Positions 12,701 through 64,000 of a stretch of 64,000 bases of DNA are shown one piece after another. The number at the start of each line of letters is the position of its first letter. The stretch's first letter is position 1. Both the position numbers and the translations under genes were made by a program. The notes below the pieces were generated by a model. The model searched no databases. It was not told the DNA's origin and worked only from the letters and a program-made list of their open reading frames with translations. Location: NCBI GenBank assembly GCA_030704615.1, contig CM060733.1:372001-436000 (forward strand), written 5' to 3'. The stretch comes from Takakia lepidozioides (Eukaryota > Plantae > Bryophyta).

Positions 12701-12829
12701 TCTTGTTCTGCCCGCCCTGGTCATATATGCTCAGCTTAGCGACAAGTGTTCCATACTCCGTTGGTATCAGTGGCGCAGCCCGTGACTGCTTTTGCGTTTC
12801 AACATGCAAATCATGCTGCAATGGTTTGT

Positions 12830-18674: not shown

Positions 18675-18864
18675 CTCTAGTTCTTCCGGTATGGGTGATG
18701 TACTCTCTGATCTTAATGGTGTGAGAGGTCCAGATGATTCCCCTATGTCTATTCCTCTCTCCAGAGATATGGATAATTAGCTTTCAGATAGCTTTCTCTT
18801 TTGTTGAATATCTCTGGCGTCTAGCTTCTCTTTCATCACTCATGTCCCATGTCTTTCATTTCTT

Positions 18865-19359: not shown

Positions 19360-19432
19360 ATCAAATTCTTTAATTCTCCAACCACCATGATCCTACCAGA
19401 TGCCTGTCACATCTGGTTGTTCATGACCCAGT

Positions 19433-19452: not shown

Positions 19453-20440
19453 TGTCGCGCGGCTTTTACTCACCCATCCCTTCGCTATCCGAGGCGGAAA
19501 CTCCAAGATAGAAGAGTTGGAAATCTCTAAGCACTCAGCCCGCTCAGAACAATCAGTCATGACCTACAGCTAGTGTATCATGGGGGTGTTTCCTATTTGT
19601 TTTCCTTCCCGCATTCATGTTTGCTAGTTACCTTACTGTTGGTAATTAAGTATCAGTTTGCTTCAGCAATCTATCGGATTCCATCAACTCATCCATTCAT
19701 TCCACAGCTTCACTCAGATCTCTCTACACAGTGTGAGTATGAAGTATGTATCAGATTAACATCTATCAAGTATCAGGCTGAAGCCATGGAGTCTCTAATC
19801 TGCTCTACATTACAACTCTACTGCTTGCATTCATCAAGCATCAACAGATCATCCTCCTCCTACTCCGTGTTCTCCCTCTTTCTGCTCAGAGATGTCTTTC
19901 TGCCTCATTTCCCCCAAGTGATGTCTCAAGTCCCCTCAAGAAGTGATCCCCCAGAATTGATCATTTTCCAGTCTTTGCTCCTGGCTTTATCTTCCTACCC
20001 GGTGTTCTAACCGTTTCCCTCACTAACCGTCATCCGTGAACTAACATGCTCCATTCGCAGATGTTGTTCCCCATAGTCGTTCCCTGTCCTGCTATCCGTT
20101 CCCTATGGTCGTAACAGCTGTGTCAAGCTGTGACTGGCTGTGTGAAACTGTGACGGGCTGTGACTGGCTGTGTGGCTGTGACGGGATGTGTTGACTATGA
20201 CTGGCTGTATTGGCTGTGTCGGGCTGTGTCGGCTATGCGAAGCTGTGACGGGCTGTTTGGCTGTGACTGGCTGTGTCGGCTGTGTCGGCTGTGTCGGACT
20301 GTGACGAGCTGTGTTGGCTGTGACGAGCTGTGTCGGACTGTGACGGGCTGTGTTGGACTGTGACGAGCTGTGTTGGCTGTGACGGGCTGTGTCGGACTGT
20401 GACGGGTTGTGTAACCCCCTCCTAAAGTGCGCTGCTGTCA
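19453..20440 (-). repeat. 5' LTR (~990 bp, TG...CA)
   Basis: The minus strand begins TGACAGCAGC (20440) and ends GCGCGACA (19453) next to the PBS. The far boundary cannot be confirmed without a second LTR. Confidence 0.7.
20117..20411. repeat. Tandem 10-bp GCTGTG-core repeat inside the LTR
   Basis: gctgtgacgg gctgtgtcgg actgtgacga gctgtgttgg recurs, about 29 units. Confidence 0.95.
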
Positions 20441-37684: not shown

Positions 37685-37918
37685 CTGCAAAAAAAGTGCC
37701 TACTGAACCGTGCAGTCTGCGGACCACTCCGCAAGAGGTTTTTCCCTCACTTCAGTGCTGCTGTCCCATAAACTACTTGGATTGTGCTCATCACCATGGG
37801 AAGCTCCAAGAATGTCATCTGTCACATTCACCAGTTGGTTCTTTGGTATTACAGATATACGGACACAATATCAATTGTCTGTCGACAGGATTTCTTCCTT
37901 CTGGGTTTACTGCTTGTT

Positions 37919-39470
37919 TCACCAGTAATCCCCACAAGAGCATCCCCCATCCTCAAAGTGGTGAAAACGGTTGGCATCGTACAACAATTGTTCGCCCGAC
38001 AATTTTTGAGATGAACTTGGTGGCAGTGTGGCAGTCACCACACACCCGAAAGTTCTTGATGACACACATAGGCATCCCAGGGGGCATCCTGATAAGCCCA
38101 AACGCAATGGCCAGCTTCTCACTATGGAGGCAAAGTGAAAGTTCCTTTGTCTCCTCCAAATCATGCAACACAAAGCCTGTGTTAGGCACATATCCGACAT
38201 CCTTCATCATCCCAGACAATCATCAGCTCGGTGTGGATGTCGTCAATTTGTGGATGCAATTTATCTTCCACAACAAACGTATTCACCTGCTTGTCAACCT
38301 CAATACAGCTGCGGCCTGGCTCTTTTCTCACACCTCTGCCCTCCATCATTCTCCTAACCTTTGCTTTATCATCCCACCTCCCAGCTGCAGCATAGATGTT
38401 TGATAGCAGCACGTATGCAGCAGCATGCTGTGGATCACTCTCAAGCGGATGACTCTCAAGAACATTTTCAGCCGCATGTTCAGCTACCTCCACATCACCA
38501 TGAATTCTGCAGGCACCACGCAAGGCCCTCCACACCCTTGCATCCCGTTTGATTGACATTTTGTTAATAAAATCTTCTGCCTCATTCAATTGCCCTGCAC
38601 GGCCAAGAAGGTCCACCATGCAACCAAAATGTTCCACTGCAGGAGTGAGGCCATGATTCGTTCATGTTACCAAAGTAGTGGCAGCCTTCATCCAATAGGC
38701 CCATCTGGCTGCCTGCAGAGAAGGCCCTCCCGTTGCATCTGTTCAAATAGTCACAGGGCCTCCCTACCAAAACCATGCTGACCATATCCTACAATCATTG
38801 TACTCCATGAGAGCACATCTCGTTCAGTCATATTGTCAAACACTTGCCTTACGCTCCCACACTTCGCACACATGTTAAATATATGAGTCAATTCCAGATT
38901 TGATGATGTTGGCATGGACCTCTTTGCCCTTTTCCAATGCTCCTAGGCTGGCACACGCATCCAGGACACACATGAATGTGACCTTGTCGGGTGTCATTCC
39001 TTCCTGCTGCATGCGATCATACACATTGAGAGCCTCCTTACCAAACCCCTGCTGAGAGTATCATGCGATCAATGCACTCCATGAGACCACATTCCGTTCA
39101 GCCATGTTCTCCAACACTTCCCGTGCATCCCCCATACTCCCACACTTGGAATACATGTCAGCAAGGGCAGTGTCCAAAATGATATCTGGTGTTATTCCAG
39201 CTTTGATGATGTATGCATGGACCTCTTTGCCCTTTTCGAGGGTTCCTAGGCTTGAGCACGCATTGAGAACACAATTGAATGTGACCTTGTTGGCCTTCCC
39301 GTTGCATCTGCTCATAGATCATGAAAGCCTCCCCCAAACCGATGCTGAGCATAACCTGCGATCATTACACTCCATGATACCACATCTCATTTGGCCATAT
39401 TGTCAAACACTTGACGTGCATCCTTCATGCTCCACATTTGGCATACATGTTAGCAAGGGCCAGTTTCCAA
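37919..39470 (-). pseudogene. PPR-DYW pseudogene, tandem duplicate of the adjacent gene
   Basis: Fragments with MYSKCG, EHFGCMVDLLGRAG, YVLLSNIY, EPGRSCIEV, HSEKLA, CGDCH and CSCGDYW in shifting frames. The sequence after the stop (TGAAACAAGCA...CCCAGAAG) matches that of the intact copy. Confidence 0.93.
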
Positions 39471-39717
39471 ACATGCACACCAGCATTCACTTTCTACAAA
39501 TGAAATGACCTCCAGCGCTTGTAGTGAATGATTTTTTGTTGAAACTTGGATTTTCAGGGCCTCTGTCCCCTTTTAATTTGATGTCTGGAAAAACCAGCAA
39601 CAGGATTCTCCTCACTCAACGAGGCATTAGTTCTTCCATTTAAAATCTTTGCTTATGAAGAATTATCACCTTGTGCCACTCCTGTTTCAGGCAGTTCTTC
39701 TGGGAATGTTGCTTGTT

Positions 39718-42700
39718 TCACCAGTAATCCCCACAAGAACAAAGCCCCTCTTGAAAGTGGTGAAAGCGGTTGGCATCCCGTACAACAACAGCTCGCCCAA
39801 CAATCTTTGAGATGAATTTGGTGGCCGTGTGGCAGTCACCACACATCCGAAGGTTCTTGATGATGCGGATAGGCGTCCCAGAGGGGGTGCTTATCAGCCC
39901 AAAAGCAATGGCCAGCTTCTCACTGTGGTGGCAGAGAGAAAATTCCTTTTGCTGCTCCTCCACATCGTGCAATACAAAACGAGTGTCCGGCATGTACCCG
40001 GTTTTCTCCATCTGCTCAGAGAGTCTCTTCAGCTCAGCATGGATTTCCCCCATTTGTGGATGCAGTTTGTCTTCTGCAACAAAGGTATGCACCCGGTTGT
40101 CCACCTCAATACAGCTGCGCCCTGGCTCCTTTCTGACACCTCTCTCATGCATCATTTTTCTGACCTTTGCTGTGTCAGCCCACCTGCCAGCTGCAGCATA
40201 GATGTTTGATAGGAGCACATAGGTTGCAGCGTGCTGTGGATCCCACTTGAGAATGCATGTCGCTGCACGCTCTGCTTGCTCCACGTCTCCATGAATTCTA
40301 CATGCACTAAGCCAGGCCCCCCACACCGTAGCATCTGGTTGAATTGGCATCTTACTAATGAAGTCCTCTGCCTCATCCAATCGCCCTGCACGGCCAAGAA
40401 GGTCCACCATGCAGCCAAAGTGCTCCAGGGTAGGAGTGAGACCATGGTCTTGACTGATGGAAACAAAGTAGTGAAAGCCTTCATCCACTAGGCCCACATG
40501 GCTACATGCAGACAAAACACATATAAAGGTGACACCATTCGGCTCCAAGTCCTCCAGTCTCATGTGTTCAAATAGTTGCAGGGCCTCCCCACCACACCCA
40601 TGCTGGGCATATCCTGCAATCATCGCATTCCATGAGACCACATCTCGTTCAACCATGTTGTCAAACATTTGGCGTGAATCCTTTATGTCCCCACACTTGG
40701 CATACATGTTCACAAGCGCAGTCTCGAGAATAATATCTGATGCAATTCCAGCTTTCATAATGTCAGCATACACCTCTTTTCCCTTTTCCAGGGCTGCCAG
40801 GCTGGCACAAGCATTGAGCACACAGATGAATGTGACCTTGTCGGGCATCACCCCTTCCCCTCGCATTTCCTCATACATCTCGAAAGCCTCCTTATTGAAA
40901 CCATGCTGAGCATATCCTGCAATCATTGTGTTCCATGAGACCAAATCTCGTTCAGCCATATTGCCAAATACTTGGCACGCATCCTTGAGGCTCCCGCATT
41001 TAGCATACATATTGACTAAGGCATTCTCCAAATTAATATATGACCCAATTCCAGTTTTGATAATGTCAGCATGAACCCTTTTGCCCTTTTCCAGGGCACA
41101 TGCATTGAGAATGCAAATGAAGGTGACCGAATCAGGGGTCACCCCTGCCTGTAGCATTTGCTCATAGATCTCAAAAGCCTCCTTACCAAACCCATGCTGA
41201 GCATATCCTGCAATCATCGCACTCCATGAACCCATACCTTGTACAGTCATATTGTCAAACATTTGACGAGCATCATCGAAGCTCCCGCATTTAGCATACA
41301 TGTTAACAAGGCTGTCATCCACATTAATTCCAGCTTTGACGATGTCAGCATGGATCTCTTTACCCTTTTCCAAGGTTGTCAGGCTGGCACACACATTGAG
41401 GACACAAATGTACGTGACCTTGTTGGGTGTCACTGCTTCCTGTACCATCTGCTCATAGACTTTGAAGGCCTCCCAACCACATCTGTGCTGAGCGTAGCCT
41501 GCAATCATTGCATTCCATGAGACTACATCTCGTTTAGCCATACTGTCAAACACTTGATGTGCATCCTTCATGTTTCCGCATTTGGCATACATGTCAACAA
41601 GTGCAGTCTCCAGAATGATATCCGGTGCAATTCTAGCTTTGATGATATCATCATGGACCCTTCTACCATTTTCCAAGGCTTCCAGCCTGGCACATGCCTT
41701 GAGAAGGCAAATAAATGTGACCTTGTCAGGCGTCACTCCTTCCTGTATCATTTGCTCATAGACCTCGAAAGCCTCCCTACTGTAACCATGCTGAGCATAT
41801 CCTGCTATCATCGCACTCCATGCAACAACATCTCGTTGAGCCATATTGTCGAACACGTTACGAGCATCATTCATGTTCCCACATCTGGCATACATGGCGG
41901 CAAGGGCAGTCTCCAAAATGATATCTGGTGCAATTCCAGCTTTGATGATGTCAACATGGACCTCTTTGCCCTTGTCTAGGGCACCGAGGCTAGCGCATGC
42001 ATTGAGAAGGCAAATGAAGGTGACAACGTTGGGAGACAATCCTTTCCACATCATTTGCTCATAGATCTCAAAAGCCTCCCTTCCACAGCCACACTGAGCA
42101 TATCCTGAAATCATTGTATTCCATGAGACCACATTTTGTTGGGCCATATTGTCGAAGACTTGACGTGCATCCTTAACGCTCCCACATTTGGCATACATTT
42201 GAACAAGGGCAGTATCCAGAATGATATCTGATGCAATTCCAGCTTGGATGATGTCAGCATGAACGCTTTTGCCCTTTTCCAAGGTGGCCAGGGTGGTACA
42301 CGCATTGAGAATGCAAATGAACGTGACCTGGTTGGGTGTCACCCCTTCCCATATCATTTGCTCATAAATTTCGAAAGCCTCTCTACAAGACCCATTCTGA
42401 ACATACCCTGTGATCATTGCATTCCATGAGACCACATTCCGTTGAGCCATATTATTAAATACTTGACGTGCATCTCTCACACTCCCACATTTGGCATACA
42501 TGGCAGCAAGGGCAGTCTCCAGAGTGATATCTGGTGCTATGCCAGCTTTGATGATGTCCGCATGGACCTCTTTGCCCTTCTCCAGGGATCCTAGGCTGGC
42601 GCACGCCTTGACAACACAAATGAACGTGACATTGTTGGGCGTCACCCCTTCCCGCACCATTTGCTGATAGGTCTTGACAGCCTCCCTGCCACACCCATGC

Positions 42701-43134
42701 TTAGCATATCCCGCCATCAGCATAGTCCAAGTAAAAACATCTCGCTCAGGCATTTTGTCAAACACTAGGCATGCATCCACCATGCTCCCACACTTGGCAT
42801 ACATGTTGACAAGAGTGTTGAGTAGAGAGATGTTTGGCTTTAATCCACTTTGGTTAATGTGGGCGTGCACCTGCTTTCCCATAGCAAGATTTTCCAATTT
42901 GATGCACGCCCGCAAGAGATGGACATATGTACTGGAGTCAGCAGAAATCCCTTGCTTGTTCAAAATATGCAATGCCTCTTTCAGTTTTCCTGCTTTAGAT
43001 AGTGTCCTCACATTCCCCAAAGAGCCAGAAGAGTTCTTGTTGAGTCCATGACCAGATTGGGCTGGAGCTTGTATCATTGCAGCTAGGTCTGCTTTCACCC
43101 AAGAGGGGTTCAACCGACTCTCAATCCAGAGCAC
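39718..43134 (-). CDS. PLS-class pentatricopeptide repeat protein with E and DYW cytidine deaminase domains (organellar C-to-U editing factor)
   Basis: 1138-codon open frame with 8 MYA(K/R)CG triplet repeats (~303 bp period), E1/E2, PG box, HSEKLA, CGDCH and terminal DYW. The true start may lie in upstream exons (acceptor near 43153; candidate exons ~43600-43830). Confidence 0.97.
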   Translation of the reverse strand: MLWIESRLNPSWVKADLAAMIQAPAQSGHGLNKNSSGSLGNVRTLSKAGKLKEALHILNKQGISADSSTYVHLLRACIKLENLAMGKQVHAHINQSGLKPNISLLNTLVNMYAKCGSMVDACLVFDKMPERDVFTWTMLMAGYAKHGCGREAVKTYQQMVREGVTPNNVTFICVVKACASLGSLEKGKEVHADIIKAGIAPDITLETALAAMYAKCGSVRDARQVFNNMAQRNVVSWNAMITGYVQNGSCREAFEIYEQMIWEGVTPNQVTFICILNACTTLATLEKGKSVHADIIQAGIASDIILDTALVQMYAKCGSVKDARQVFDNMAQQNVVSWNTMISGYAQCGCGREAFEIYEQMMWKGLSPNVVTFICLLNACASLGALDKGKEVHVDIIKAGIAPDIILETALAAMYARCGNMNDARNVFDNMAQRDVVAWSAMIAGYAQHGYSREAFEVYEQMIQEGVTPDKVTFICLLKACARLEALENGRRVHDDIIKARIAPDIILETALVDMYAKCGNMKDAHQVFDSMAKRDVVSWNAMIAGYAQHRCGWEAFKVYEQMVQEAVTPNKVTYICVLNVCASLTTLEKGKEIHADIVKAGINVDDSLVNMYAKCGSFDDARQMFDNMTVQGMGSWSAMIAGYAQHGFGKEAFEIYEQMLQAGVTPDSVTFICILNACALEKGKRVHADIIKTGIGSYINLENALVNMYAKCGSLKDACQVFGNMAERDLVSWNTMIAGYAQHGFNKEAFEMYEEMRGEGVMPDKVTFICVLNACASLAALEKGKEVYADIMKAGIASDIILETALVNMYAKCGDIKDSRQMFDNMVERDVVSWNAMIAGYAQHGCGGEALQLFEHMRLEDLEPNGVTFICVLSACSHVGLVDEGFHYFVSISQDHGLTPTLEHFGCMVDLLGRAGRLDEAEDFISKMPIQPDATVWGAWLSACRIHGDVEQAERAATCILKWDPQHAATYVLLSNIYAAAGRWADTAKVRKMMHERGVRKEPGRSCIEVDNRVHTFVAEDKLHPQMGEIHAELKRLSEQMEKTGYMPDTRFVLHDVEEQQKEFSLCHHSEKLAIAFGLISTPSGTPIRIIKNLRMCGDCHTATKFISKIVGRAVVVRDANRFHHFQEGLCSCGDYW

Positions 43135-46100
43135 CTCGATTGTGCACTTATCTCTGAAATAAGGTAATCTTGGACTTTTCTGTGAAAACCACTTGTGGGC
43201 AGCTGAGCAGCAATAGCTCCAACCACAGCCTTGCTTAAGCCCAGGTTACTGAAAGGAAGTTTCTAAGAGTCTTGTTAGGCTGCGATTCACAAAGCATCCG
43301 TTGCTTATCCAAACTAGCATGCAGCTAGATTTTTTCGTTTATTTAGAAATATCAAGTCACCCCTTGAAGTTTTCATGGCAGACTACCTGTGAACAGCACC
43401 AACTGTAGGCCTTTTTGTGAACTTTGACCCAAGATTCATCTATCTACATGAAATGCTACAATTTTCAAGCTTTGAACAGGCATAGAAAATTGCCCAGCAA
43501 CCCCATTCCAGAATAATTCATTCCTTAACACCAACAGCAGAAAAAAACAGCCTACCAGATTCGCCCCTCGGCTCCGTGGTCGATCATAAGCTGCAGGACT
43601 CACCACAGATGACATCTCTACGAAGCTCTGTGTGCCTGTCTGGTAGAGCGGTGAATGAGTTTCCATATCCTCTCTCCTTCACCTGCAACTCAGATTTTAG
43701 CCACTAACACCACAGCAACGCAGCATGCCCTCTTTCATCCTGCTTGAAACTAAACCGTAACCCCAAACGTAACCGCACACAACTAGTACTCGGGGCCCGA
43801 AACCCCTTCGCTCCATCGCTCCCATTACAACCAAATTTGGATTTTGCGAGGAGAGAGAAGACAGAGGGGCGGCCGCTCTGCGTACATTCAATTTGTATTT
43901 GTCAACTACTATATTGTATTACCTTCACGAAGGTAATATCTGAGGACCATAAAATCAGACTTCTCCAAACCTTCCACCATGGCAATTTCGAACTTGTAAA
44001 TCATCTGAAGAGCCTGTCTAGTTGCAGATCATCGTCCTGGGGACACAGCAGAAACTGAGGGTCTTATTAGTAAACACCATCTTGTTCGTAGTTGTTGGAA
44101 CTGATTCATCTGCTGGAACTAAGTGTTGTCTAGGGAGTGACTGGGCGACCATTCCCAAGGGATTCAGTTCAAAGGGTGACAATTGGTGAGAGAGAGAGAT
44201 ACAATAGCAGAGGGAGAATTTGGCCAAGAAGTCCATCTGTGTGATGCCTCCAGCATGCACTCATGCAGCAAGAAGATCGAGCTTTTCTTCAGGGTTTCAG
44301 GTGTGGAACCTTGGCTTGCTTTTGCAACTTGCAGCTAGAGACCCTTCCATGGACTTTAAACTGTGCTTTTGGAGCCAACTTGAATCAACCCAGGGCGCAT
44401 ATCATGGAGATTTCAGGAAAGACAATTGGAGAAGTTGGTTTTTGCATTTCTCCCTTAGTGCATGAAAGATATTCCCAATGACGGCTTCAAAGGAATCACC
44501 ACCAACACCATTGACAGTCCACCCATCTCACCAGGCATCAGTTTGCAGGCAAAAGGTATCTGCCCCAGGTGCTTTGCCACTTACTGCAAAAGCTGTCTCA
44601 ACATCAGTTGCCACTGTCTGCCTGTTTCAGCAGACTGCAGCTGGAGGGTCCAAGTAAGCCTTTCTTTCTGGCTAGAGCATCTTTAATATGATCTGAAGCT
44701 ATAAAAGTAGCCAAAGGGACCAAAGCATACACTTTGACAAGATTGAGATGAGGGATTCCGTGTCTCATCTCTCATGTATCCTATCAACCGTAGCCTCCCT
44801 CATCCATGTACAAGAGCCTGCTAGCAATGGGGATGGCATGGGCGTAGGAACCTGCATTCAACCATCAGTGCATGTGTGAGGTTTTGACACTCTTCAGAAT
44901 CTATGAATGTTAATTCACTGTCAGAATATGTTGTGAGCTTGAAGATTCTGAGGAATTAGGAACCAGGGAGAACACGGTACTGCAGCAGCCTGTTTCAAGA
45001 ATTTGCCATAACACATGCCATAGCATTTAGAGCCATTCAACCAGTAGAATTTAACCTTTGCTGTTCAAGGGGTCCCAGTCTGGGAATGTGAAAGCTCTCA
45101 TGGACAGAGAAATGTGAGCTTCAGTCTATCTGCCACAAAGTATTTTTGAAGACATTGAACTCTACAACTACAATCGTATAATATATTCGGCTTTATATCA
45201 ACAGGAGGTACACTCACCCTGAGGCAAGCATCTCACATAAGGACAACAAAACAAATGTCAGTGTTAAGGTTGATTCATAAGATCTGAAACCAGTGTCCTT
45301 CGACGTCAACAATGTCATGAAAACACTCTGGGTAAAACAGGTGCAACTACCTCAGAAGACAACTGCCACAGGACCTTTGCTGTAAAATCTTCTGTGGCCC
45401 AGGTTAATAAAGGTTAGTCATTCAGCCGAAACTATGGCTCAACAGGCTACAGGAATGACAATTGTCTCACTTAATAATGAATTGAGTTCAGGGATTGATA
45501 CAACAATACGAGTGATGTTGTGTAGTATTTATCTTTTGAGGGGCTCAGGAGATCCAACATACCATACAAAAGAATGCAGAGGACTGATGACAGCCGCATC
45601 AGTGCTGCCGCCAATGCTTCTCTAATCCTAATCCACGTCGCCATTTCCTTTCTGCTTTGCAAGTACCTCATTAGAGGTGGTCTCAATGTACAAAAAAATG
45701 GGATAAAACTTGTGACCACCCATGACGAGTACTGTGCTGTTTCTTACCAAAAGCCGATTGTTGACAGGCTTTGCAAAGCTGTCTCCATTCTCAACTTTCC
45801 TCTTCTCCAAAGCTACACACAAAAGGAACAGGAGAGCCGTTGTACTCTACCTGCAGTGGCTCCCGTGTGGACCTGCAGGTCACAGATGTAGGTGTCAGTA
45901 CCGCTTTGTCCCCTAGGCTCGCTTGCTGGGAGCTGCAAAGGCAGGGACAAGGTGACAAACCAAGACATACTAGTGAAGAGAGTTGCTACATCTTTGGATG
46001 CCTCTCACTAGATATGCAAGTAGCACTTTACTCTGGTTAACACTCAGGCGCAATTTGGTTGAGGTCTTTGTTAGGAGGGGAAGGGTGGATTGCACTGAAC

Positions 46101-53123: not shown

Positions 53124-55565
53124 GGCCTTCCTAATCACTCCACCTCTTCTGCTTCACCACAACTCCCATCCTCCCTCTTCCACAAAGGGCACATTTCCCT
53201 TCCACGCTGCTGCCCATTGTCTGTCATCGCAACCTCGCAGCAGCCCTCAAGCTCTCGTCGTCGTCTTCCTCCCTCGCTCCCCCCTGCCACGGTCCACCCA
53301 AAGTTGAAGTTCCAGTGTTTTATGTCTGGCGAAATTTCGCTCAAAACAACAAATCGAATATTCTGTCGTAAATTCCCTATTTTCTCATGGATGAAATCGC
53401 CAAAATTTCCAAACAAAAATAAATCTTGGATGACTTCGCCTAATATGGATGATATACATGGATGACAGTGCAGAGGAGGATGATTCTGTCCAAATTTCAG
53501 TGGATGAACAGAAAATATGGCTATTTCCTGCAAAATTCAGTATCCACTCCTGTTATTTTCCAAATGTTTTAGAAAAAACTGCGTCCCAAACCCTCCGTCA
53601 CCCCTATTTTGCTTGATGCCCTCCATGGCATGCATCATGGATGGATGTCGTAGGTACTTTGCGAGCAGGCGGCCCGGGGTTCAAATCTACACAGGCCTGT
53701 CATGCTTGCGAAATTGGGTCAAGAATCCAGACTTTGCTATGGCTCCATTTCAGTGTGGCTCACTGTTTCTCGAAGGAGAGGGGACTGGGTCTCGGCTAAA
53801 TCCATGAAAACATTTGAGATTGTTTTGCATGGTGGGAATGTAGTTCTAGATTTGAGGTAAATCTTTTTGCGTCGTCCAAAACTATCAAAGCCCCAATAAA
53901 CAAAAATAAAACAACAATTAAACACATTGTGCCTTGTTGAATTTAATACTTGTCCATATTTGAATATTAGTGCATATATATGTAATTGGTAGAGGGCTGG
54001 GACAGATCTATTCCTCAATTTTACATGCAATGTAAATGACATTATATATGTGGAATATTCATAGGTCTTATATAAAGAGTATCACATCGATAAAGTCAGT
54101 AGTTGATGTAGTATTATTGCCTTTGTGATCAACAATTCTCACTAGTTTGTTTTGTCAAACAATTTATTGGAAAAAAAATTCAACTTTGCCACTTAAGTTT
54201 GGGACAAATTTTGCGAATTCTTGAAAGATCATTTTTATGTGATGGCTGCAACCCCAATGTAATTGAAATTCTAAGAGAGACTCATTGAAAGAGTAAGTAG
54301 TGAAGAGACACGTCGCCGAAGAACTTTAAACACGATGGAGAACTCAATATGCATAACGATTTTATCAATACATTGGAACCAGTCCGGCTTAGAGGAATTG
54401 TGAAGGATGCTAGAGCATGTGTTGTTCACATCCTTAAGAAGCGTTTCAGATAAGTATTTCCATCTCAAAGGTTTTGATCATTCATTGTTTTCTTCTTCTT
54501 TTGTACAAATTGGTGTTCTTGTCATGGTTTTAGTCATGGTTAACTAGAATTACCTACTTCTAGTTAACTATGACATTTTGGATATTTATATGTGCAGTTT
54601 GTGTGTTGGGACTTCATTTGGTTTCATAAGAAGTGGTTGTTCTGTCCATCGTGAAATGAAGCCAAGTGGGGTTTCATTTGGTTGACAAACAAGCAAGCTA
54701 AGGCGACGCTAGAAGGTAGTGTTTTTGCTAGTTCTATGAGTTCTTGGATTGCTCTTGGTGAAGCAAGTGATTGACCAAGCAAGTGGCACATGTGTGGAGC
54801 ATGCTTTCCAAGTGTGGTTTCCAATTCAAGCTTGAGGAGAGCTAGAAGGTGAAGTGAGCAAGTTCATTCTTTGTGTATGAAGTGGTGCATGTTGTGGAAG
54901 AAAAGTCAAGGAGTTACATAGGCTAGCGTTTGAAGACAACAAAAGCAACCACTTGGAGAGCATCAAGAAGCTCAAGATGACTCCAAAGGGAAGCATGTGG
55001 GTGAGAATTCTATCCATGATGATGTGAAACCAAGCCTAGAGTATTGAAGAGCTTGGAACACATTTGGGAGATCATTGGAGGTGGTCTTCATGAAGAAAGG
55101 AAATTGTGGCTCACGACATGCATAGCACCTTCAACCATACATTAGCATGTGACAAGACAAGGAAGGGGAAGGTGAAGCTCATGTATTCATTCCCTTTTTG
55201 CTTAAGTTTTGTGGTGGATCGTTGATCAAGCAAGTGATGGTGGAACATGCTCTTTAGGGCTTGTGACTTCAAGTTTGAGAAGATGAGCTCTTGAATAGAG
55301 GTGTGGATACACATTATGATGAATGAAGACAACACCTAGGTCAAGAGGTGGAAGTGTCTGTGACTAGCCCATGCAAGGAAAAGCACATGGAAGATGGCAT
55401 ACAAAATTCAAATTCAAGCAAGGCTTGGCGCTTGTCATTGGGCACATTAGTTTGCTATGAGTTCCAAGGAGATCAAGATTTGGGATGAATGCATTGCAAA
55501 GTAAGATAATGCAATCTTACATGCATGTTAGGGGAGAAGATACCATGAAGAAGGTGTTTCTTACT

Positions 55566-55731
55566 ATACTCTACAAACCCTAGTCTCCATACTCTTCAAG
55601 AAACTGTGTATGGGTTCCCTCTGCCCCACCATACACTTTTGTGAGCAAAGTATGGATACAAGTGGAGAGACTTTGCCTACCATACGTTTTCATTAAAAGT
55701 GTATGACATCTAGGGTGTATCCGGAGGAGTA
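55566..55731. repeat. Small foldback element with three internal CCATAC...GTATG(G) palindromes
   Basis: Outer inverted repeat tactc..tacaaaccctag / ctagggtgta..gagta. Inner units ccatactcttcaagaaactgtgtatgg, ccatacacttttgtgagcaaagtatgg and ccatacgttttcattaaaagtgtatg. Confidence 0.6.
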
Positions 55732-56559
55732 TTGCCTTTGGAGGATCTTTGGGGGGTCCTTTGAGGAGCTTTTGTAAGACACTTGAAGAGCACTTGAAGG
55801 GGTGTTTGGAGGACTGTTTGGAGGACTATTGGGGTCCTTGGAGACCAATATTTGGCGAGCTTAAGGAGACTTTGGCGACTTGTTTGAAGGACTATTTGGG
55901 GTTCTTAAGGGCCAAGATTTGGCAGGCTCTTGGGGCCTTGGTGGACTATTTGGAGTCCAATTGTACAGGCTTTGGGGGCTTTAGTGAGATTGTTTGAGAG
56001 ACATCTTGAGGGCTCTTGGAGAGTTATTTGAGAGATCCTGGAAGGTAGTCCTGTCTATTGGTCATAGCAAGAGCGTTTAGAGATTGGGGGAGACTAGTGG
56101 GATGAGAGCATTTTGGGATTAGGAATTGTTTTAGTCTCTCTTCCCGGTAGTCAGCCTCTTTGTAGGCCAAAACCTTTCCGTAGGTGGAGGCAAAAGACAG
56201 TCCGGGTTTGGGCTGGGGTGTCCTTGCAGGAGCGACACTGTGGAGTGTTTTTTTTGGTGTGGGGGAGTTACTGTCTTGATTTTCTTGTGTTTGGATTCCC
56301 CCCCACACCTGCATGCTTGACTATGTACCATGTCAGTTTTGTGTGGGCGCTTGTTTTCATAGGAGGTTGGTCCCGATTTGATCACCGGCCAATCCTAGAG
56401 CGTGCTGTCGGTGGTGAGGCTAGGGTGATGACCAGTCAGACCATCATTGTTTCTCTTATGGTGAGGCTGGGTTGATGACCAGCAAAGCATATGAGTGCTT
56501 GCGGTGCAGGGTCTGCCATGGGTGTTTGCACCCTATGATCTTGTGCTCGCCCCCACTCA

Positions 56560-57610
56560 TTGCCTCCACCGTCCCGGTTGGCAGAGATGGTGCAATATCC
56601 AATGGAAGTGCAGAAGTAGCCACCAATGTTTGCAATCTCCGTTGCTCAGCCATGCACAAGCCAATGACCCATGTCAAGCAATTGAGATCCATTGCCTGAC
56701 CCAACACCTGGCGTCGTGTTGCCTCTGACAAAGTTGGCACAACTATAGTGCACATGGCAAATCCCATTGCCCGCTATCGCTCATCCGCATTGGGCTCCAC
56801 CAATTGCTATAGCACACTGTCCCAAATCAACCCAGGACCATTGTCTCGAAAAACATGAGACGAGGGAAAGCTCATGAGCGTAGGCAAGGCTGCACGTGGC
56901 TGCCCCACTCGATTTACCACTGCTAGATGTGGATGGTCATCATGTCGCACCCTCTGTGGTTGCCTCCCTTGGTCCAAAATGCCCTCAATTGTGAGATTGG
57001 GTGGCCGTTCAATGGAATCGTATGCTCTCTTGAGCAGCTCTGGTGGTGAAAGATTGGTCCACCACAATCGAGGTCGATGCACTCGTGATCCCACGCTGTT
57101 GCATCCAATAGCACTGTCGATCCAATCCAAGACCGCACGTGATGTACACTGGCCATAACCCTGGCCCGAGAGTCCCCCATAAGAGAAACATTCTCCAAGA
57201 CATATGCTAGAGGTTGCACTTGCCCCGTCTGCAAGTCACGCAACACTCTCAACATCTCCCAAAACAAATGTGATCGTGCATCATGCAAGCCATTCCCATG
57301 ACATGTGGGAGAGTGTCCTTGGCAATGTCATCCAGCTATCACCAAGTCAATGGCATCATGCCGGTCCAAATCATCCGCCCCTAGCAAGGTAATATCTGTT
57401 GGCAAGGCCTTTTGATACCCTTGAATTGCTGAGAGAGGCAACAATTCAGGATACCGGTGTGTGAGCAAGGCGATGTGGCGCATAGAAATACGCCGAGCTA
57501 TCTCATCCTTCTCCACATACAAGTACTTGCGTACTTTAATCTTTGCTTGCAACACTCATCCTGCAAGCCCAATGCTCATGCCTCCAAACATATCTAGCAA
57601 ACAAATCCCT
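56560..57610 (-). pseudogene. C5-cytosine DNA methyltransferase domain (DNMT3-like, non-permuted) inside the retrotransposon polyprotein
   Basis: Motif I LLDMFGGMSIG, II YVEKD, III TDI, IV LVIAG*HCQG (decayed GWPCQG), LFWEMLRVL, VI YVLENV, VIII HRPRLWWTN, IX ER*RAMGF, X RRQVLGQAMD. Same frame as the upstream protease ORF through motif VI. Several stops and one frameshift (~57095). Confidence 0.92.
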
Positions 57611-57654
57611 GAGTCAAGTGGTTGCCAGGTAATGGGCATTGTGTCCAAAGGAGC

Positions 57655-59028
57655 TCAATGAGGAGGTCCCGGTGATGTCACTGAACTCCCTTCACTCACC
57701 AATGGATAGGCCTCCTGCCATGCTTGGTGCACACACTCGCCTGCTACTCGATGCAAATTCCCAACTGTACCCCACAGTGGAATATGAACAGGCACATGAG
57801 GAAGCAAATCAGCCTTGTATGCCAATTGTTTGTACTCATCAGGTGGTGGCCTATCATCTGCATGGCTATTGCCCTCCAAGAGCTTACCACCCCAAGCCAC
57901 CACCCCTGAGAATGCAGCCAATGTGGGCATCATGTTTCTATGATCCACCGCTATATTTCCAATAAACCGCACTGGGAGTAGTGCATGTCGACCATCCCTT
58001 GACTGCCATTCCGGCCTGTAGGATGCCGTTTCCTCCCAAAAGTCCAAAGTAAAGCCCATCGGGTATAACACAACCCCACCAACAAGCACATCATAAGACA
58101 TCGCGTCCGTAACAATGGCTTTAGCTCTCATAATAGAGCCATCTGTAGGATGATCTGGCTGCAATCGAATGAAGAGCTCATGGCGTGTAATCCCTCGTGC
58201 CTTCTCTGAACCGCCCAAAGATGTTTGAATTTGGAAAGGGCAAGGGTCCAAATCCGCCTTTGTAAGGCCCAAGCCTGCAATTGCTGCTCTCCCCAACATC
58301 AATGGCTGTGCTCTCGAGTCCAACAAGATCCGCAGTGGCCTATACCTCCTCCCGGTTGGGCCACCCAATTGAAACACTCCATCCTGATTGTCCACCAGGA
58401 CTACCCCAGGAGTCAACATGCTGCGCTCAATGGCTGGCCTAGCTGGCAACTCCTGCAACCTTGCAGCTGCCGCTTGCCATGGCGCAGCTGTGGCTGACTT
58501 CACCCTTGAATCCAAAGCATCCATAGACTGTACCTTATTTGCTATCTCTGTAGATAGTGCCGATGCATCACCACTCTCACAGAGTTTAGCTACTAGTCTA
58601 AACACAACAGCTGGCCGTATCCCCGGCATTGCAATGGTCATTGCAAAAAACAATGGAGCTTGGCAAACCGCCGTAGCCGCCCCCAACAATGTATTGGCTG
58701 CACCTTGTTTTCCAGTATCATCCACTGGCATCCCCCGAGCCATGTCAACTCTCCCTAATGACACTCGTGGCTCTACCTTTGACACACTTGGGCGAGCGGG
58801 TGCCATCGATGACATAGTTGGCACTGTCTCAGCCAATGTGAAAGACTGTGGAAGCCTTGTCTGCCAATTTGCTTCCCCTTTTTGTGGATCAAGATCCACA
58901 TCCGCTCCTCTTGGCTCAGGAGCACATGTTGCTGCTCGAGTGACAGCAGCTGCAGAGTCCACATGCAATGGTCCTGCAAGTGAGGCTCCACACATGAAGC
59001 CCATACCAATCTGGTCTTCACTAGGCAT
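57655..59028 (-). CDS. Retrotransposon aspartic protease region of the DNMT element
   Basis: ILLDSRAQP (decayed DSG active site) and YDVLVGG...L.PMGF.LDFW flap/C-terminal motif. Confidence 0.8.
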   Translation of the reverse strand: MPSEDQIGMGFMCGASLAGPLHVDSAAAVTRAATCAPEPRGADVDLDPQKGEANWQTRLPQSFTLAETVPTMSSMAPARPSVSKVEPRVSLGRVDMARGMPVDDTGKQGAANTLLGAATAVCQAPLFFAMTIAMPGIRPAVVFRLVAKLCESGDASALSTEIANKVQSMDALDSRVKSATAAPWQAAAARLQELPARPAIERSMLTPGVVLVDNQDGVFQLGGPTGRRYRPLRILLDSRAQPLMLGRAAIAGLGLTKADLDPCPFQIQTSLGGSEKARGITRHELFIRLQPDHPTDGSIMRAKAIVTDAMSYDVLVGGVVLYPMGFTLDFWEETASYRPEWQSRDGRHALLPVRFIGNIAVDHRNMMPTLAAFSGVVAWGGKLLEGNSHADDRPPPDEYKQLAYKADLLPHVPVHIPLWGTVGNLHRVAGECVHQAWQEAYPLVSEGSSVTSPGPPH

Positions 59029-59289
59029 AGGAGGTTATGCGGGTGCGGCTTGAACCTCAAGCCTTGGAACTGGCGCAACATGAGTAGTGGCCATGGCAGC
59101 AAGACATTGCTCTAGCTGGGCAAGTCTATCCACCATGCCTTGGTCATGACTTTGACCCTGACCCTGTGCTCCTTGGTTTTGGTTACGTCCTCCACCCCGA
59201 CCTCTGCCTCATCTACCTCTCTGGACTACATTGTCTAGTCATCCTCGGCCACCATTGTTCCCTTGGAACTGGCCTGGGCGTAGCTCAGG

Positions 59290-60250
59290 ATGCAAGCCAT
59301 AACAATGGGCCTCCTCATGCCCATACTTTCCACAATGCCCACACTGTAGTTGTGTAGGCTGTGCCTATGCCGGCCCTTTGCCTCTCTCCGGGCAATCCTT
59401 CTTGACATGGGGTCCTCCACAATTCCAACATGACACACTCGTTTGTTGCTCACCTGAGAATGAAGGGAGAGACCTCTGAATCTAAGATCCTCTATGGCCT
59501 TCTCTAGGCTTTATCTGAGCCCCCTTGTTGCCTTGAGCACGTTGGGGAGTTGGTTGTTGTTGGCTAGGAACCCCACTTCGTTGTGTCTCCTTGCCAAATC
59601 CCACCATGACCACTCGCTCCTCCACCATATTGAGTTCTATCCGCTCTGCCAACAAAAACATGTTTGCTAAGGTGGGTTGGGCCACTTGTAGGAGAGTTGC
59701 ATCCCGCACCCTTCTCCTCAGCTCCTTGTCCAATATCCCATACCAGAATTGGACTGCTTGAGCTTCCATAACCCCTTGGGTTAGATTTATCAATCGCCTC
59801 ATGCGCGTGTAAGCCTCCTTCAAACTCTCAGTAGACCTTCGTTGGAGTTCTTGCAAGCTTCGCAACTTCTATGTCCTTATCCCTTGGTAGTTTCTCCTCA
59901 ACTCCTCGAAAAACTCCACAACTGGTTGGAGATGTTTGTGTAGCTGCTGGTGTCGCCGCTGCCCTTGTGCCTCTAGTGATGGAGACATAATTAGGTGACA
60001 ATTACTCTCGCCACTCCTCAATCTCCACCGCATGTCCCCGTCTAAATTCATGGTAATCATCCATGGGCGGCCCCTCAAGGTGCTGGAATAGCCCCTTCCA
60101 CGCCATAAAGGGCGTAAACAGTTGTGGATTGCACATTTGCTGCAAATCACACCAACTGTCAAACTCTTGTATGAAGTCATCAAGCTCGATGGTGCCCACA
60201 GCTCCAGAGTACCTACGTGGCCCCTTGGTAGCTCCATACATCTCCTCCAT
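59290..60250 (-). pseudogene. gag: gag of the DNMT element
   Basis: YSG...LDDFIQEFDSWC...LEGP and LQELQRRSTESLKEAYTRMRRL...FWYGI gag core. Knuckles CWNCGGPHVKKDC and CGHCGKYGHEEAHC read by hand at ~59430-59320. Confidence 0.82.
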
Positions 60251-60252
60251 CG

Positions 60253-60556
60253 TGTCCCACAATAATGACACGGAAATGGCTTGCACTCTCGGCGAGAATC
60301 CTCTGGCTCCGAGTCTGAACCTTAATCATAAGACACTGAAGGTGAAGGTGGCCTAAACCATACACCTCGTCTTGTGTACCCACTAGTATCACTGGTGCTC
60401 GTACCGGCACTCCCCTCAGCAACTGGTGGTACCTCCGTGATGAAAACTCACAACCCAACCGGTTGTCAACCTGTCTCTAATCCCCACTTTCTACAAGGTA
60501 ACCGGGTAGAGAACCTATTGCGGCCTATGGCTTAGACTAGTACTACGTTCGTAACA
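60253..60556 (-). repeat. Candidate 5' LTR of the DNMT element (~304 bp)
   Basis: The minus strand starts TGTTACGAAC (60556) and ends GTGGGACA (60253) just before the gag ATG. No second copy in the window and no tRNA PBS recognised. Confidence 0.4.
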
Positions 60557-60604
60557 TAAATCTACACCTGCACCTGCATCCACCGCAAGCACTCATATGG
60601 GTGT

Positions 60605-62652
60605 TTGCCAAGGGCTTATAGAAATTGCTTTGCCTTCGGTTTGAAGGATTTGGGGAGTTTGAAGGGCCAGGAGATTCATATTGATTTGGCAAGTGACACG
60701 CCAATTTTTCGAAGGCCCTACAGGTATAGTGATATGGAGAGGTCTTTGATCCAGTCACGGACTATGGAGTTGTTCGAAGCTGGATTGGTGGAGTTATCAG
60801 GCGGAGAGTATGCCTCGGCAATGGTGATACCAGCTAAGAAGGATATCTATGGCAATTGGACAGAAAGGAGGATGTGTGGGACTACCGTCCTGTAAACCGT
60901 CAGACTAAGTCTGATAGATATGCCATGCCAACTCCAGAGGAGATCTTTGATGCCATTGGGCATGCAAAGGTGTTTAGCACATTGGACTTGCGATCCGGTT
61001 ACCACCAGTTGCCAATCAAAGAGGCTGACAAGCAAAAGACGACATTCTGGGGGATTGACCAACATGGGAAGGATTGCTTGTACCAATGGCGGTTCCTACC
61101 GTTTGGGTTGAAAAATGCTCCTGCAGAGTTTCAAAGGGTCATGGATAGGATTCTTGCGGGGCTAGACTTCGCCCGGTGCTACATTGATGACATCATCATC
61201 TTTAGTGCTACGATTGAGGAGCACGAGAGACACCTTCAGATGGTGTTTGAGCGCTTGAGAGCGCATGGGTTGAAATTGCACCCTGGGAAGTGCAAGTTCT
61301 TCCACAACCAGATTGAGTATCTGGGCCACATGATATACCCTAGAGGATTGGGTGTTCAAAAGACGAAGGTAGAGGCCATTGCACGCATTCCACGCCCCAT
61401 CGATGTTAGCAGAGTTCGTGCTTTCATGGGGTTGGCAAACTACTATCGACGGTTTGTCAAGGGATTTAGCAGCATTGCAAAGGTTCTGACCAAGTTGACC
61501 AAGGTGGGTCAGGAGTGGCAGTGGGAAGAGGAACAGGAGGAAGCCTTTGAGGAACTCAAGGCTCGATTGATTTCTGCGCCTATTCTGAGGCGGCCTATTC
61601 GGGGGCGGCCTTTCCAGCTACATACGGATTGGAGTATGCTGGGGATTGGAGCAATGCTCACACAAGTGGATGATGAGGGAAGAGAGTTTGTAGTGGCATA
61701 TGCTAGCCACTCGAACAATGATGCCGAGGCGAAGTATAGTTCCTATGAAGGGGAGTGTCTAGCTGCAGTATGGGCAGTGGCACATTTTAGATGCTACCTC
61801 TATGACAATCTCTTCACCCTTGTCACGGATCACCAACCATTGAAGTGGTTGATGGAGTCAGACAAGCTTACACGGAAGCTTGCACGGTGGGCACTTATGC
61901 TTCAAGAGTATGACTTCCAGGCGGTGCATCGAGCCGGCATAGTCAACCGGGATGCGGATAGATTGAGTCGCAATCCATGCACAAGTGAGCTTGATCATAT
62001 AGGAGCTCGTTGGCATGGTGAGACGGACAAGGAGATGGTGCCAGGATGGCACGCATCTGCCTTTTTATGCATTCTAGCAATGGGAGCTCAAGCTGGTCCA
62101 TCCCATGCGATTGGTCATAGAGATAGTGTGCATGACGATCCAAAGATCAGTGAGGAGCTTGGTGGTGCTAAGGATGTACATGAAGATGCAACAGTGTTGG
62201 CCTACCTTCGTACTAGAGAGACAACAGCCAATGTGACTGCTAAGGAGAGAGATTGGATCCTACAACGAGTCAAGAGATTCAAGTGGGAGGGGACTCTCCT
62301 ACTCTGAGTATGGGAGGATGGACGAGTGAGGATTGTGCCTTATCCAACACAACGAGCGCGATTGGTACGCCATGCCCATGAGGTGTTGGGACATTTTGGG
62401 GTGCGGCGCACTCATAGTTTGCTACAATGACAGTATTGGTGGCGGGGCATGCACACGGATGTGCAACAATTAGTGGCAAGGTGCATGGTGTGTGATAGAG
62501 TGCGGGCTTCTTTCAGTGCACCTACTCCACAATTGCATCCTTCACCCATTATGGGTTTGGGCTATTGTTGGAGTCTTGACTTTGCAGGCCCATTGCCACT
62601 AATGATTCGTCATAACAAGTATGTGCTGGTGATGGTGGAATATTTCTCCAAA
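60605..62652 (+). pseudogene. pol: RT-RNase H-partial integrase of the DNMT element
   Basis: PIFRRPYR, RMCG|DYRPVN (frameshift), STLDLRSGYHQ, LPFGLKNAP, YIDD, EYLGH, LHTDWS, YSSYEGECLA, TDHQPL, HEVLGH...CMVC, WSLDFAGP. Ends after VEYFSK with a tatttctcc microduplication. Confidence 0.95.
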
Positions 62653-62958: not shown

Positions 62959-63958
62959 TTACTCACATGAAAAGTCATTGTCGACCTGTTTATCTTTGGG
63001 ATCGTCATCATTTCGAATTTGAATCCGATCAGTCTGTGTGCCTGAAGTGGAGCCAGACAAAAGGGGGAGGAGCACTGTGTTGTAGAGGTCAGAATCACCC
63101 TCCATGCCAAAAAGGCTTCTTCCGCCCTGCCTTGCATGCATGGTAAGTTGCTCTTGCACCAGACAGGAGGACATGAACAGTTTGGTGGGGGGGATTTAAG
63201 CAAATGGAACTGGTGAAAGAAAATCAATTCAGAAGGGAGAGAACGAACCTGTGGACACAGAAAGATCGACCACCCGTGCAGAGTGGTGGCTACATGACTC
63301 CAGCAGTATTTGCATGAACGTTGGGGATTTTTCCTTTGCACCTCTTCAGGGAGTGCCATCTGGTCTCTTCAGAGTCTGACTGGACTGCATGAAGTTCTAC
63401 AAAATGTCATCGACATGCGGTTCATAGGGGGGGTTGACAAAACAACCCTGGTCAGAAATCTCAAAGCTGCGGATGGAGGATGGTGTCTTTGAGGTGCGAA
63501 TCCTCCCCAGGCAGATCGTCTCGAACATCCTCATCTGCCATGACAGATTCTTCTAGAGTGGAGCTGCAGAAAACATTGAAACTCATCATGAAAGCACAAG
63601 CAGAAGGGAGACGACGTACCAGCTGACCAGGGAAACCCCTTTTCACAAGGTAGAGGCTGTTCACACAATTCCATGTGCGCAAAACTTCAAACCCTGAAGA
63701 CTTCAAGTATGATGCCAATGCCCGACGACTATCTTTGTCACATGACTGAAAAAGCAGAAGTGTCCCTGCATCAGAGAGGAAATTATTACAGAACCCGAAC
63801 ACCCAACTCCAGTAGTTGTCCTCGAATTTGTTCCAGCCTGGCATCTTGCCCTTTGGAAGATCTTCTGGCACAGCCTGGCCATCCGGGATGTCGAGAATGA
63901 CAATGTCAGCTGCATATGTTTTCTGCACACTGCACACGAAGGTGGGACCAGTGCTCAC
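62959..63958 (-). pseudogene. Intron-containing beta-class N4-cytosine/N6-adenine DNA methyltransferase-like gene, pseudogenised; probably continues beyond the window
   Basis: ADIVILDIPDG (position of DPPY motif IV), FLSDAGTLLLF (motif VI-like), DGTP*RGAKEKSPTFMQILLESCS...VVDLSVSTG (motifs X/I), ATYHACKAG|GRSLFGMEGDSDLY (motif II). Donor-like sites at 63619 and ~63248. In-frame stops and a frameshift. Confidence 0.72.
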
Positions 63959-64000
63959 CTGCAACAGACATGTTTATTTTAATAACGATGGCAAGAATGT

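Follow-up and report, generated by a model that had tools for sequence, protein, structure and literature searches.

A defunct moss copy, carrying an internal inversion, of a Gypsy-DNMT3 retrotransposon family with members in mosses and liverworts and homologues in streptophyte algae

Described systems that pair retroelements with DNA methyltransferases

Retrotransposons carrying a DNA methyltransferase (DNMT) of the kind considered here have been known since a 2018 study of the streptophyte alga Klebsormidium nitens (PMC5890265). As portrayed in the passages of that paper devoted to it, the element KnitGypsy-Dnmt3 encodes a Gypsy-type polyprotein that includes a DNMT3-like domain without introns or circular permutation, evolving under purifying selection, and the legend to Fig. 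4c describes a DIRS-like repeat plan combined with Gypsy domains (PMC5890265). The bryophyte-type elements analyzed below share these features. However, their hosts are land plants, and an in-frame stop separates their DNMT from the reverse transcriptase (RT), two domains that the authors of the algal study place in one open reading frame (ORF). Because the DNMT-RT ORF is interrupted, we set the bryophyte-type elements apart as a variant of the KnitGypsy-Dnmt3 kind. A readthrough signal, a PHD finger, TG...CA termini, and duplication of the target site are all absent from the same passages (PMC5890265). In the literature searched, elements of this DNMT-carrying kind were reported from algae only.

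EpiLTRs, found in Euglena and Cymbomonas, are likewise LTR-type retroelements that combine a C5-DNMT with a chromatin-reader domain. As their preprint describes them, however, the DNMT is sister to DNMT4 and is accompanied by DAM and a chromodomain, and the authors regard them as distinct from the streptophyte Gypsy-DNMT3 elements; the terms 'Marchantia', 'land plant', and 'bryophyte' have zero occurrences in its main text (10.64898/2026.05.21.726589). Host DNMT3 enzymes such as PpDNMT3b also share the canonical motif order and DNMT3 fold, and de novo CG/CHH activity was reported for PpDNMT3b (PMC6453930). In contrast to the element DNMT, which has no introns and forms a fusion with the protease ahead of it, host DNMT3 genes are described as multi-exonic (PMC5890265) and as carrying a domain of unknown function (PMC6453930). 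The role of retrotransposon-borne DNMTs has been under question since 2018, in part since dinoflagellate and Klebsormidium hosts are hard to manipulate.

A dead, rearranged copy in a moss genome

The window, a stretch of 64,000 nucleotides of Takakia lepidozioides contig CM060733.1, holds at 56560..62652 what is almost certainly a defunct moss member of a streptophyte Gypsy-DNMT3 retrotransposon family, with part of its interior inverted. A sequence-only reading of this DNA had concluded that the host is an embryophyte and that the copy is dead. Both conclusions hold: the host is specifically a moss, and the copy has stops and frameshifts in gag and DNMT and an integrase (IN) that is cut off. 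On the minus strand, gag (59250..60250), with two zinc knuckles (59430-59407 and 59343-59317), contains stops and a frameshift; 94 aa of it align at 79% identity with the N-terminal part of the Marchantia protein P0006. The aspartic protease (PR) region, placed at 57900..58460 (minus strand) by comparison with relatives, reads LLDSRAQ (58326-58306) at the active-site motif, where relatives read LLDSGAQ or LLDTGAQ. This region of the window gave zero Pfam protease matches, and the relatives' protease matched PF13650 and PF13975, both under the cut-offs.

The DNMT3-like C5-cytosine methyltransferase domain and its tail occupy 56510..57654 (minus strand), as established with PF00145, tblastn to Marchantia and Sphagnum proteins, and a tree; the core spans about 57612-56620, and homology stops at HPWQT (56510). 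All the C5-methyltransferase motifs previously listed in canonical order were found on the minus strand: DMFGGMSIG (57594-57568), YVEKD (57519-57505), G*HCQG (57333-57316), ENV (near 57195), HRPRLWWTN (57079-57053), RAMGF (56773-56759), and LGQAM (56704-56690). The proposal that the PR frame runs into the DNMT over a single stop stands for the N-terminal half, across a TGA at 57657-57655, but not for the whole domain, which has four more stops (near 57557, 57329, 56808, and 56775) and a frameshift near 57100. In the PC motif, H replaces P (HC), where intact relatives have GWPCQG. Translated with X placed at the stops, the domain matched PF00145 at 27.6 bits (E 2.5e-6), above the gathering cut-off of 22, a score that represents its N-terminal half; ORF1 of the intact relative L068 reaches 51 bits. 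Among the matches listed, the window DNMT is 58-69% identical to 10 proteins, and its colinear alignment with intact relatives leaves no room for introns, as had been claimed.

RT and RNase H (RH) lie on the plus strand at 60611..61980 (RVT_1, E 1.6e-32; RT_RNaseH, E 1.3e-34), with one frameshift near 60880, and are followed at 62320..62652 (plus strand) by the IN zinc finger and the start of its core (Integrase_H2C2, E 2e-16), which ends just past the core start at an 11-bp tandem duplication. The sequence-only reading thus had the right domains but missed that RT-RH-IN (60611-62652) and gag-PR-DNMT lie on opposite strands, back to back at gag. This opposition arises because the segment with gag-PR-DNMT, 56507..60580 (now minus strand), is inverted, as judged from collinear relatives and from the junctions in other copies. 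Two exactly matching, inverted copies of a 19-bp breakpoint sequence lie at 56488..56506 (minus) and 60581..60599 (plus), the sole exact stretch of at least 11 bp shared between the reverse complement of 55001-57000 and 60001-61000. The element's 5' leader has kept its original orientation (56071..56506, plus strand; left boundary uncertain), and summed depth goes up in the bin starting at 56071.

An assembly error or two separate insertions, rather than one inverted element, would also produce a back-to-back layout, and among the contigs listed, which comprise no long reads, none spans the window-specific junction 60599-60611 and none ties the element to a single-copy flank. We nonetheless consider such an origin improbable. 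Other same-species copies connect 60600 (plus) to about 56486-56487 (minus), that is, to the un-inverted 5' side, with at least one contig at the joint, and the RT half and the DNMT half join the same bryophyte-type elements in separate trees. Loose ends behind 60600 were seen in 12-34 contigs per run among those listed, in all four runs of one sample. Either origin would leave the family identity unchanged. The favored inverted copy is without the DNMT-stop-RT linker, about 80 codons long in relatives, and upstream of 60611 other copies have native pol sequence.

A family common to mosses and liverworts

The window element belongs to the published algal Gypsy-DNMT3 kind, which is now extended to land plants in a family common to mosses and liverworts. 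Its DNMT sits in an 11-row clade with Marchantia, Calypogeia, and Sphagnum sequences (SH-aLRT 100) in a tree whose rows are retroelement sequences only, host DNMTs not being among them, and its RT clusters with the RTs of DNMT-bearing bryophyte-type elements (SH-aLRT 97). Relatives were found in Marchantia polymorpha (15 of 61 rows), Calypogeia fissa, Sphagnum fallax, S. jensenii, and S. troendelagicum, and homologues also in Closterium and K. nitens. The suspected link to Klebsormidium elements is supported by KFL_013780020, which is 36% identical over 321 aa and has the same zinc knuckle-PR-DNMT order as the bryophyte type; the K. nitens comparison sequence P0338 stops after the DNMT. The K. 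nitens DNMTs form their own clade, and how that clade is related to the bryophyte one is poorly supported in the tree.

The order gag-PR-DNMT-RT-RH-IN, earlier deduced for the intact element, is the one seen in relatives, which have PR-RT-RH-IN with a DDE integrase; in intact relatives a C-terminal PHD finger follows on IN. The search for other copies with the DNMT between PR and RT was also successful: among 57 loci whose sequence continues for 900 bp or more downstream, RT follows within 2 kb of the DNMT on the same strand in 51, and the six exceptions are broken, interrupted, or deleted copies. Many relatives have the DNMT between RH and IN instead.

Judged by its closest solved relatives in sequence and predicted fold, the DNMT appears to be DNMT3-like. 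With the Marchantia P0006 domain as a stand-in, the best PDB sequence match was DNMT3A (E 2e-11; DRM-type 4onj, 8e-5; HaeIII, 2e-4), and the Foldseek matches listed for its model (pLDDT 81) were DNMT3A/B/C throughout. Between families the domain is under purifying selection, with dN/dS of 0.09-0.17 in five pairs (0.09-0.23 for the protease); close pairs of decayed copies gave 0.44-0.55. Bryophyte-type, Closterium, Klebsormidium, and RH-DNMT-IN elements all retain the catalytic Cys together with motifs I, VI, VIII, and X.

These observations leave very little room for the idea that a moss element captured a host DNMT3 gene on a single occasion, or that the domain is a neutral passenger, a reading that is largely refuted even though the DNMT tree covers retroelement rows only. 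The relatives of the domain fall into 251 clusters at 50% identity (E up to 1e-30), and among the matches listed those that reach past the DNMT carry retroelement domains. Moreover, where the DNMT sits does not differ between mosses, liverworts, Closterium, and Klebsormidium, and the low between-family dN/dS speaks against capture and passenger alike.

Element ends and classification

The label 'LTR retrotransposon' does not hold in its canonical sense, as self-comparison of the window identified no LTR and the family ends in split repeats, A...B-A-B. This plan was read from relatives, the window copy being truncated so that it is not visible there. It is complete in L039, L056, L059, L073, and L078, and the B-A-B 3' end is present in L006, L041, and L069. 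TG...CA termini and 4-bp target duplications were found in four of the five complete relatives, one of which has TA in place of TG; the fifth is 5'-truncated. For a canonical Ty3/Gypsy LTR element, the domain order, TG...CA termini, and duplications fit, but the equal terminal LTRs are absent, the 5' end having A only and the 3' end B-A-B.

In elements of the DIRS order, a tyrosine recombinase replaces the integrase and target duplication is absent; the split-direct-repeat members of that order (PAT/Ngaro) have the A...B-A-B plan together with such a recombinase. SymbioDIRS-Dnmt3 resembles the present family in placing a DNMT3-type domain in a retroelement. Unlike SymbioDIRS-Dnmt3 and PAT/Ngaro, however, the bryophyte-type family encodes an rve integrase, has termini of the TG...CA type, and is flanked by target duplications of 4 bp. 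A DIRS assignment was rejected on these duplications and on the L068 and L072 ORFs, which matched rve and H2C2 and gave no recombinase match. The EpiLTR combination of DAM, DNMT, and chromodomain was not found by Pfam in either L068 ORF, where a single C5-DNMT and a PHD finger were the sole matches of this sort. A replication model is needed for an element that combines an integrase with split repeats and target duplications.

A conserved stop between DNMT and RT

The idea that the DNMT belongs to an uninterrupted Pol had to be abandoned, since a stop is conserved before RT: it lies in frame at the aligned DNMT-RT position in 54 of 60 bryophyte-type loci and within 1-4 codons of it in 4 more. 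Seven divergent loci (L038, L067, L068, L072, L076, L080, and L111) have the stop in the context TAG-CARYYA, and plant viruses are described as using UAG-CARYYA as their type I readthrough motif, which in tobamoviruses lies before the polymerase frame (PMC5382211). Unlike in tobamoviruses, the motif stands here within a retrotransposon, at the DNMT-RT boundary, and readthrough is inferred. On this sequence context, RT-RH-IN is probably made by readthrough of the stop. Re-initiation is disfavored for L068 and L111, because the first Met of ORF2 (residue 117) lies behind the conserved RT N-terminus. The Sphagnum-type family, the most abundant, has CAACCC instead of CARYYA in 49 of 54 loci and TAA as the stop in 16 of 54, and re-initiation is possible there because an ATG lies two codons past the stop. 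P0263 and P0404 have DNMT and RT uninterrupted, with zero stops. Gag-level expression of the DNMT is thus not universal, given P0263-like relatives without the stop and the many with the DNMT between RH and IN. Where conserved, the stop yields a concrete prediction of DNMT amount and location.

Possible roles of the element-borne enzyme

Intact members encode Gag, PR, and a DNMT3-like enzyme in one frame, and from this arrangement it seems about evenly balanced whether they package the enzyme in the particle to methylate their own cDNA. Ribosomes would usually stop after the DNMT, leaving it at the level of capsid protein, and occasional readthrough of UAG-CARYYA would supply RT-RH-IN. PR would then release the DNMT inside the particle, the freed enzyme would methylate cytosines in the double-stranded cDNA no later than at integration, and the new copy would arrive already marked like host DNA. 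Self-methylation of cDNA was proposed by de Mendoza 2018, in a paper that also reports de novo CG activity for SymbioDIRS-Dnmt3 domains (PMC5890265); we give the element's own cDNA an even chance of being the target. What the element would gain is hard to see, because methylation silences transposons in bryophytes, as is established and as Mpmet data also indicate (10.1101/363937). CpG observed/expected ratios count against self-methylation: the element, at 0.43-0.54, is not below host exons (0.38-0.42) and is above the DNMT-less Gypsy element in the window (0.21, one comparison).

An active DNMT could instead work mainly in trans in the nucleus, the ORF1 product methylating host chromatin (at insertions of the element itself, at its competitors, or at the target site), which would tune silencing and copy number. 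A large surplus of enzyme is expected from Gag-level expression, and Marchantia has many annotated copies with intact DNMT motifs. As reported for Mpmet mutants, transposons are up, 'methyltransferase activity' is enriched among up-regulated genes, CHG/CHH methylation rises, and context preference is altered (10.1101/363937). However, the authors credit that rise to RdDM- and CMT-like pathways (10.1101/363937), and the K. nitens methylome is described as ordinary and plant-like despite its elements (PMC5890265); we rate a trans role as rather unlikely.

We are similarly skeptical that the domain is kept for nucleic-acid binding, for a structural role in the particle (e.g. holding the repeat junction in replication), or for RNA methylation, with DNA methylation incidental. 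Capsid-level amounts suit a non-enzymatic role, the K. nitens domain produced no methylation when tried in yeast, an outcome that its authors regard as inconclusive, and an RNA substrate was suggested for another retrotransposon DNMT (PMC5890265). Against these functions, the catalytic Cys and motifs are retained across groups, and structurally the domain comes closest to DNMT3-group enzymes that act on DNA.

More speculatively, and in our view doubtfully, a lineage of streptophyte-algal origin, at very high copy in some bryophytes, might make active DNMT3 at capsid level before a readthrough stop, its enzymes, once de-repressed, might account for some of the host's methylation pattern, the non-CG hypermethylation of Mpmet included, and integration might proceed via DDE-integrase cleavage of circular cDNA at an internal palindrome. 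Self-methylation and trans effects are testable because elements with intact motifs occur in Marchantia polymorpha, a species with available mutants and methylomes. Gene models of Marchantia, Calypogeia, and Sphagnum hold these DNMT domains as hypothetical or unnamed proteins, so bryophyte DNA methyltransferase inventories may miss or miscount them.

Organization of the Takakia copy

The Gypsy-type element, which carries a DNMT3-like C5-cytosine methyltransferase (DNMT) domain, is real, selected and ancient. In the window copy, six-frame translation puts gag, two zinc knuckles, protease (PR) and the C5-methyltransferase at 60250-56510 of the minus strand; reverse transcriptase (RT), RNase H (RH) and the start of integrase (IN) occupy 60611-62652 of the plus strand. 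Motif coordinates on the minus strand bear out the sequence-only reading, every methyltransferase motif that it listed being present in canonical order, and the N-terminal half of the domain exceeds the PF00145 HMM cut-off. The same reading rightly took the copy to be dead: from position 57657 down, the methyltransferase holds five stops; it also has a frameshift near 57100 and HC in place of PC, further lesions lie in gag and RT, and the integrase is truncated.

Self-comparison identified a 19-bp stretch present in opposite orientations at 56488-56506 and 60581-60599. In other copies, from sequencing runs of the same species, 60600 (+) runs into 56487 (-), and native pol sequence lies upstream of 60611. 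The inverted duplication and these un-inverted joins together indicate that 56507-60580 was flipped, with loss of ~80 codons of the DNMT-RT linker; the two halves are one element carrying an inversion. In separate trees, the RT and DNMT of the window copy fall beside the same bryophyte-type elements. The back-to-back arrangement itself may, with low probability, be an assembly error: among the contigs listed for sequencing runs of the same species, none bridges the window's own junctions. The A and B repeat units that end related elements could not be located in the window.

The element family is abundant in the moss host; summed contig depth over the element is ~1e5 to 4.5e5, a value that is not a copy number, versus 63 on GNOM exons (run X1). 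A short hairpin-like inverted repeat (54533-54574) marks the transition from single-copy to repeat sequence upstream of the element. An embryophyte host had been proposed from neighboring genes, and two GNOM exons now put it with the moss Ceratodon purpureus. In trees of 25 and 24 rows, built from a set without Sphagnum or hornwort-labelled GNOM, the host falls outside liverworts, lycophytes, ferns and seed plants (support 99/97 and 100/99) and branches as sister of the Ceratodon rows.

Distribution and domain order

Named homologues come from Marchantia polymorpha, Calypogeia fissa, three Sphagnum species, Closterium and Klebsormidium nitens, with M. polymorpha contributing 15 of 61 homologue rows, some perhaps one locus in different assemblies. 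There was no named fern, lycophyte or seed-plant match, names having been checked for 30 clusters and most rows carrying none; the full HMMER search returned 251 clusters with E no higher than 1e-30. The 80 metagenome loci fetched are non-independent, most being closely similar to one protein from a cluster with Sphagnum entries, and their 64 DNMT copies collapse to 50 at 97.5% identity.

The intact order gag-PR-DNMT-RT-RH-IN, predicted from the broken window copy, is upheld by 51 of the 57 informative loci, where RT lies downstream of DNMT on the same strand. This placement of DNMT between protease and RT is found in bryophytes, Closterium and K. nitens (the latter judged by ORF end). A large separate clade of Gypsy polyproteins, including P0044, P0055, P0259, P0288 and many others, carries DNMT between RNase H and integrase together with a C-terminal PHD finger, the full RT-RH-DNMT-IN-PHD order being present in 38 rows. 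From these domain orders, the DNMT3-like domain has apparently moved within Pol.

Single-protein pattern scans of metagenome and viral contigs gave no match, and an alignment-based search of viral contigs gave 30 partial matches at 26-47% identity. Prokaryotic genomes yielded 1 matching locus, L111, in a GTDB cyanobacterial metagenome bin; this intact two-ORF element (L111:1-9285, stop context TAG-CAATCA), whose assembled ends overlap by 127 bp, is probably mis-binned eukaryotic DNA. Two neighboring elements with another RT type, at L059:4094-4516 (-) and 17546-17683 (+) of a further fetched locus, contain, ahead of their RT, sequence weakly similar (37-40%) to the N-terminal DNMT half, and possibly constitute a second DNMT-bearing family.

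The same kind of element was already published from a streptophyte alga, and the survey table in the available part of that paper lacks Marchantia and Sphagnum (de Mendoza 2018, PMC5890265). New with respect to the searchable literature are the presence in moss and liverwort, the readthrough-type stop and the integrase-type ends on split repeats. Among the papers listed by a literature search whose scope took in few subscription papers, none was recognizable as treating land-plant retroelements that carry a DNMT. The accessible portions of PMC9516144 and PMC11982613 make no mention of such elements, and those of PMC12344493 go no further than the words 'streptophytes and dinoflagellates'; bryophyte copies might be present in the supplementary trees of that paper.

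A conserved stop between DNMT and RT

ORF1 encodes gag-PR-DNMT, and ORF2, starting one codon past the ORF1 stop in the same frame, encodes RT-RH-IN-PHD; Pfam places the PHD finger at the end of intact ORF2. The stop occupies the aligned position in 54 of 60 linker-aligned loci (38 TAG, 16 TAA); in the remaining 6 it lies within 1-4 codons in 4, is replaced by GAG in one and is unclear in one. Seven divergent loci carry TAG-CARYYA, and UAG-CARYYA is described in the available text of PMC5382211 as a type I readthrough signal. In L111 and the distant relative L068, the conserved RT N-terminus has no Met ahead of it. Readthrough of the conserved stop is the simplest reading of these sequences, and would yield DNMT at the level of Gag and far less RT and integrase. 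The abundant Sphagnum-type family fits less well because CAACCC follows its stop and an ATG lies nearby. The literature search found no report of CARYYA in a retrotransposon.

Element ends

Five complete relatives share an A-internal-B-A-B plan (A ~340 bp, B ~115 bp) with a purine-rich tract ahead of the first B, and four of the five have 4-bp target duplications and ends TGTC...GACA or close variants. The internal B|A junction forms a near-palindrome, GACA-nn-TGTC, also present in L068. For the K. nitens element KnitGypsy-Dnmt3, too, a DIRS-like repeat plan is reported (de Mendoza 2018, PMC5890265). Ordinary reverse transcription would be expected to yield BA-internal-BA; if this cDNA were circularized and integrase then cut the circle at the B|A palindrome, the A-internal-B-A-B form of the relatives would result.

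The methyltransferase and its possible role

With the Marchantia domain as stand-in for structural and sequence comparison, DNMT3A is the best solved relative both by sequence and by predicted fold. Between families, DNMT dN/dS is 0.09-0.17, similar to protease and above RT (0.04, L068 vs L072), as estimated by simple counting, synonymous sites being close to saturated where pairs are distant; close pairs of decayed copies give 0.44-0.55. These ratios indicate that selection has kept the DNMT domain. A within-family frequency-class selection test was set aside as confounded by recurrent mutations: the class shared by most copies held 15 stop variants.

The best reading, held at about an even chance, is that DNMT would be packaged together with Gag, be freed by the protease and then methylate element cDNA. 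Two results weigh against cDNA methylation: the K. nitens domain produced no methylation in yeast, an outcome its authors call inconclusive in the available text (PMC5890265), and the element has no extra CpG depletion in one CpG comparison. Action in trans on host chromatin is unlikely, observations on the Marchantia Mpmet mutants in the accessible part of 10.1101/363937 serving as a lead, not evidence; a non-catalytic or RNA-directed role is similarly improbable.

Other features of the window

A second high-depth repeat adjoining the truncated integrase contains a 170-codon open frame (63464-63973, -) whose DIVILDIPDG resembles the DPPY motif of amino-methyltransferases. It has no Pfam family and no PDB match under E 1; one weak NCBIfam match lies far below cut-off, leads from the Atlas, toward MTS/Eco57I-type methylase clusters, score under 0.9, and a single-sequence fold model, at pLDDT 35, is unusable. 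At 37700-43245 (-), PLS-type PPR genes stand in tandem and contain 303-nt repeats; one has an intact 1175-codon frame with a DYW domain at its end. A second, decayed Gypsy element at 8600-19400 (-), with no DNMT match noted, has extra open frames downstream of its integrase and is accompanied by two tandem arrays of 10-bp units (12404-12733, 20107-20404). A long inverted repeat pair (1489-2006 and 6333-6864, 85-89% complementary) flanks a LINE-like RT frame at 1962-3839.
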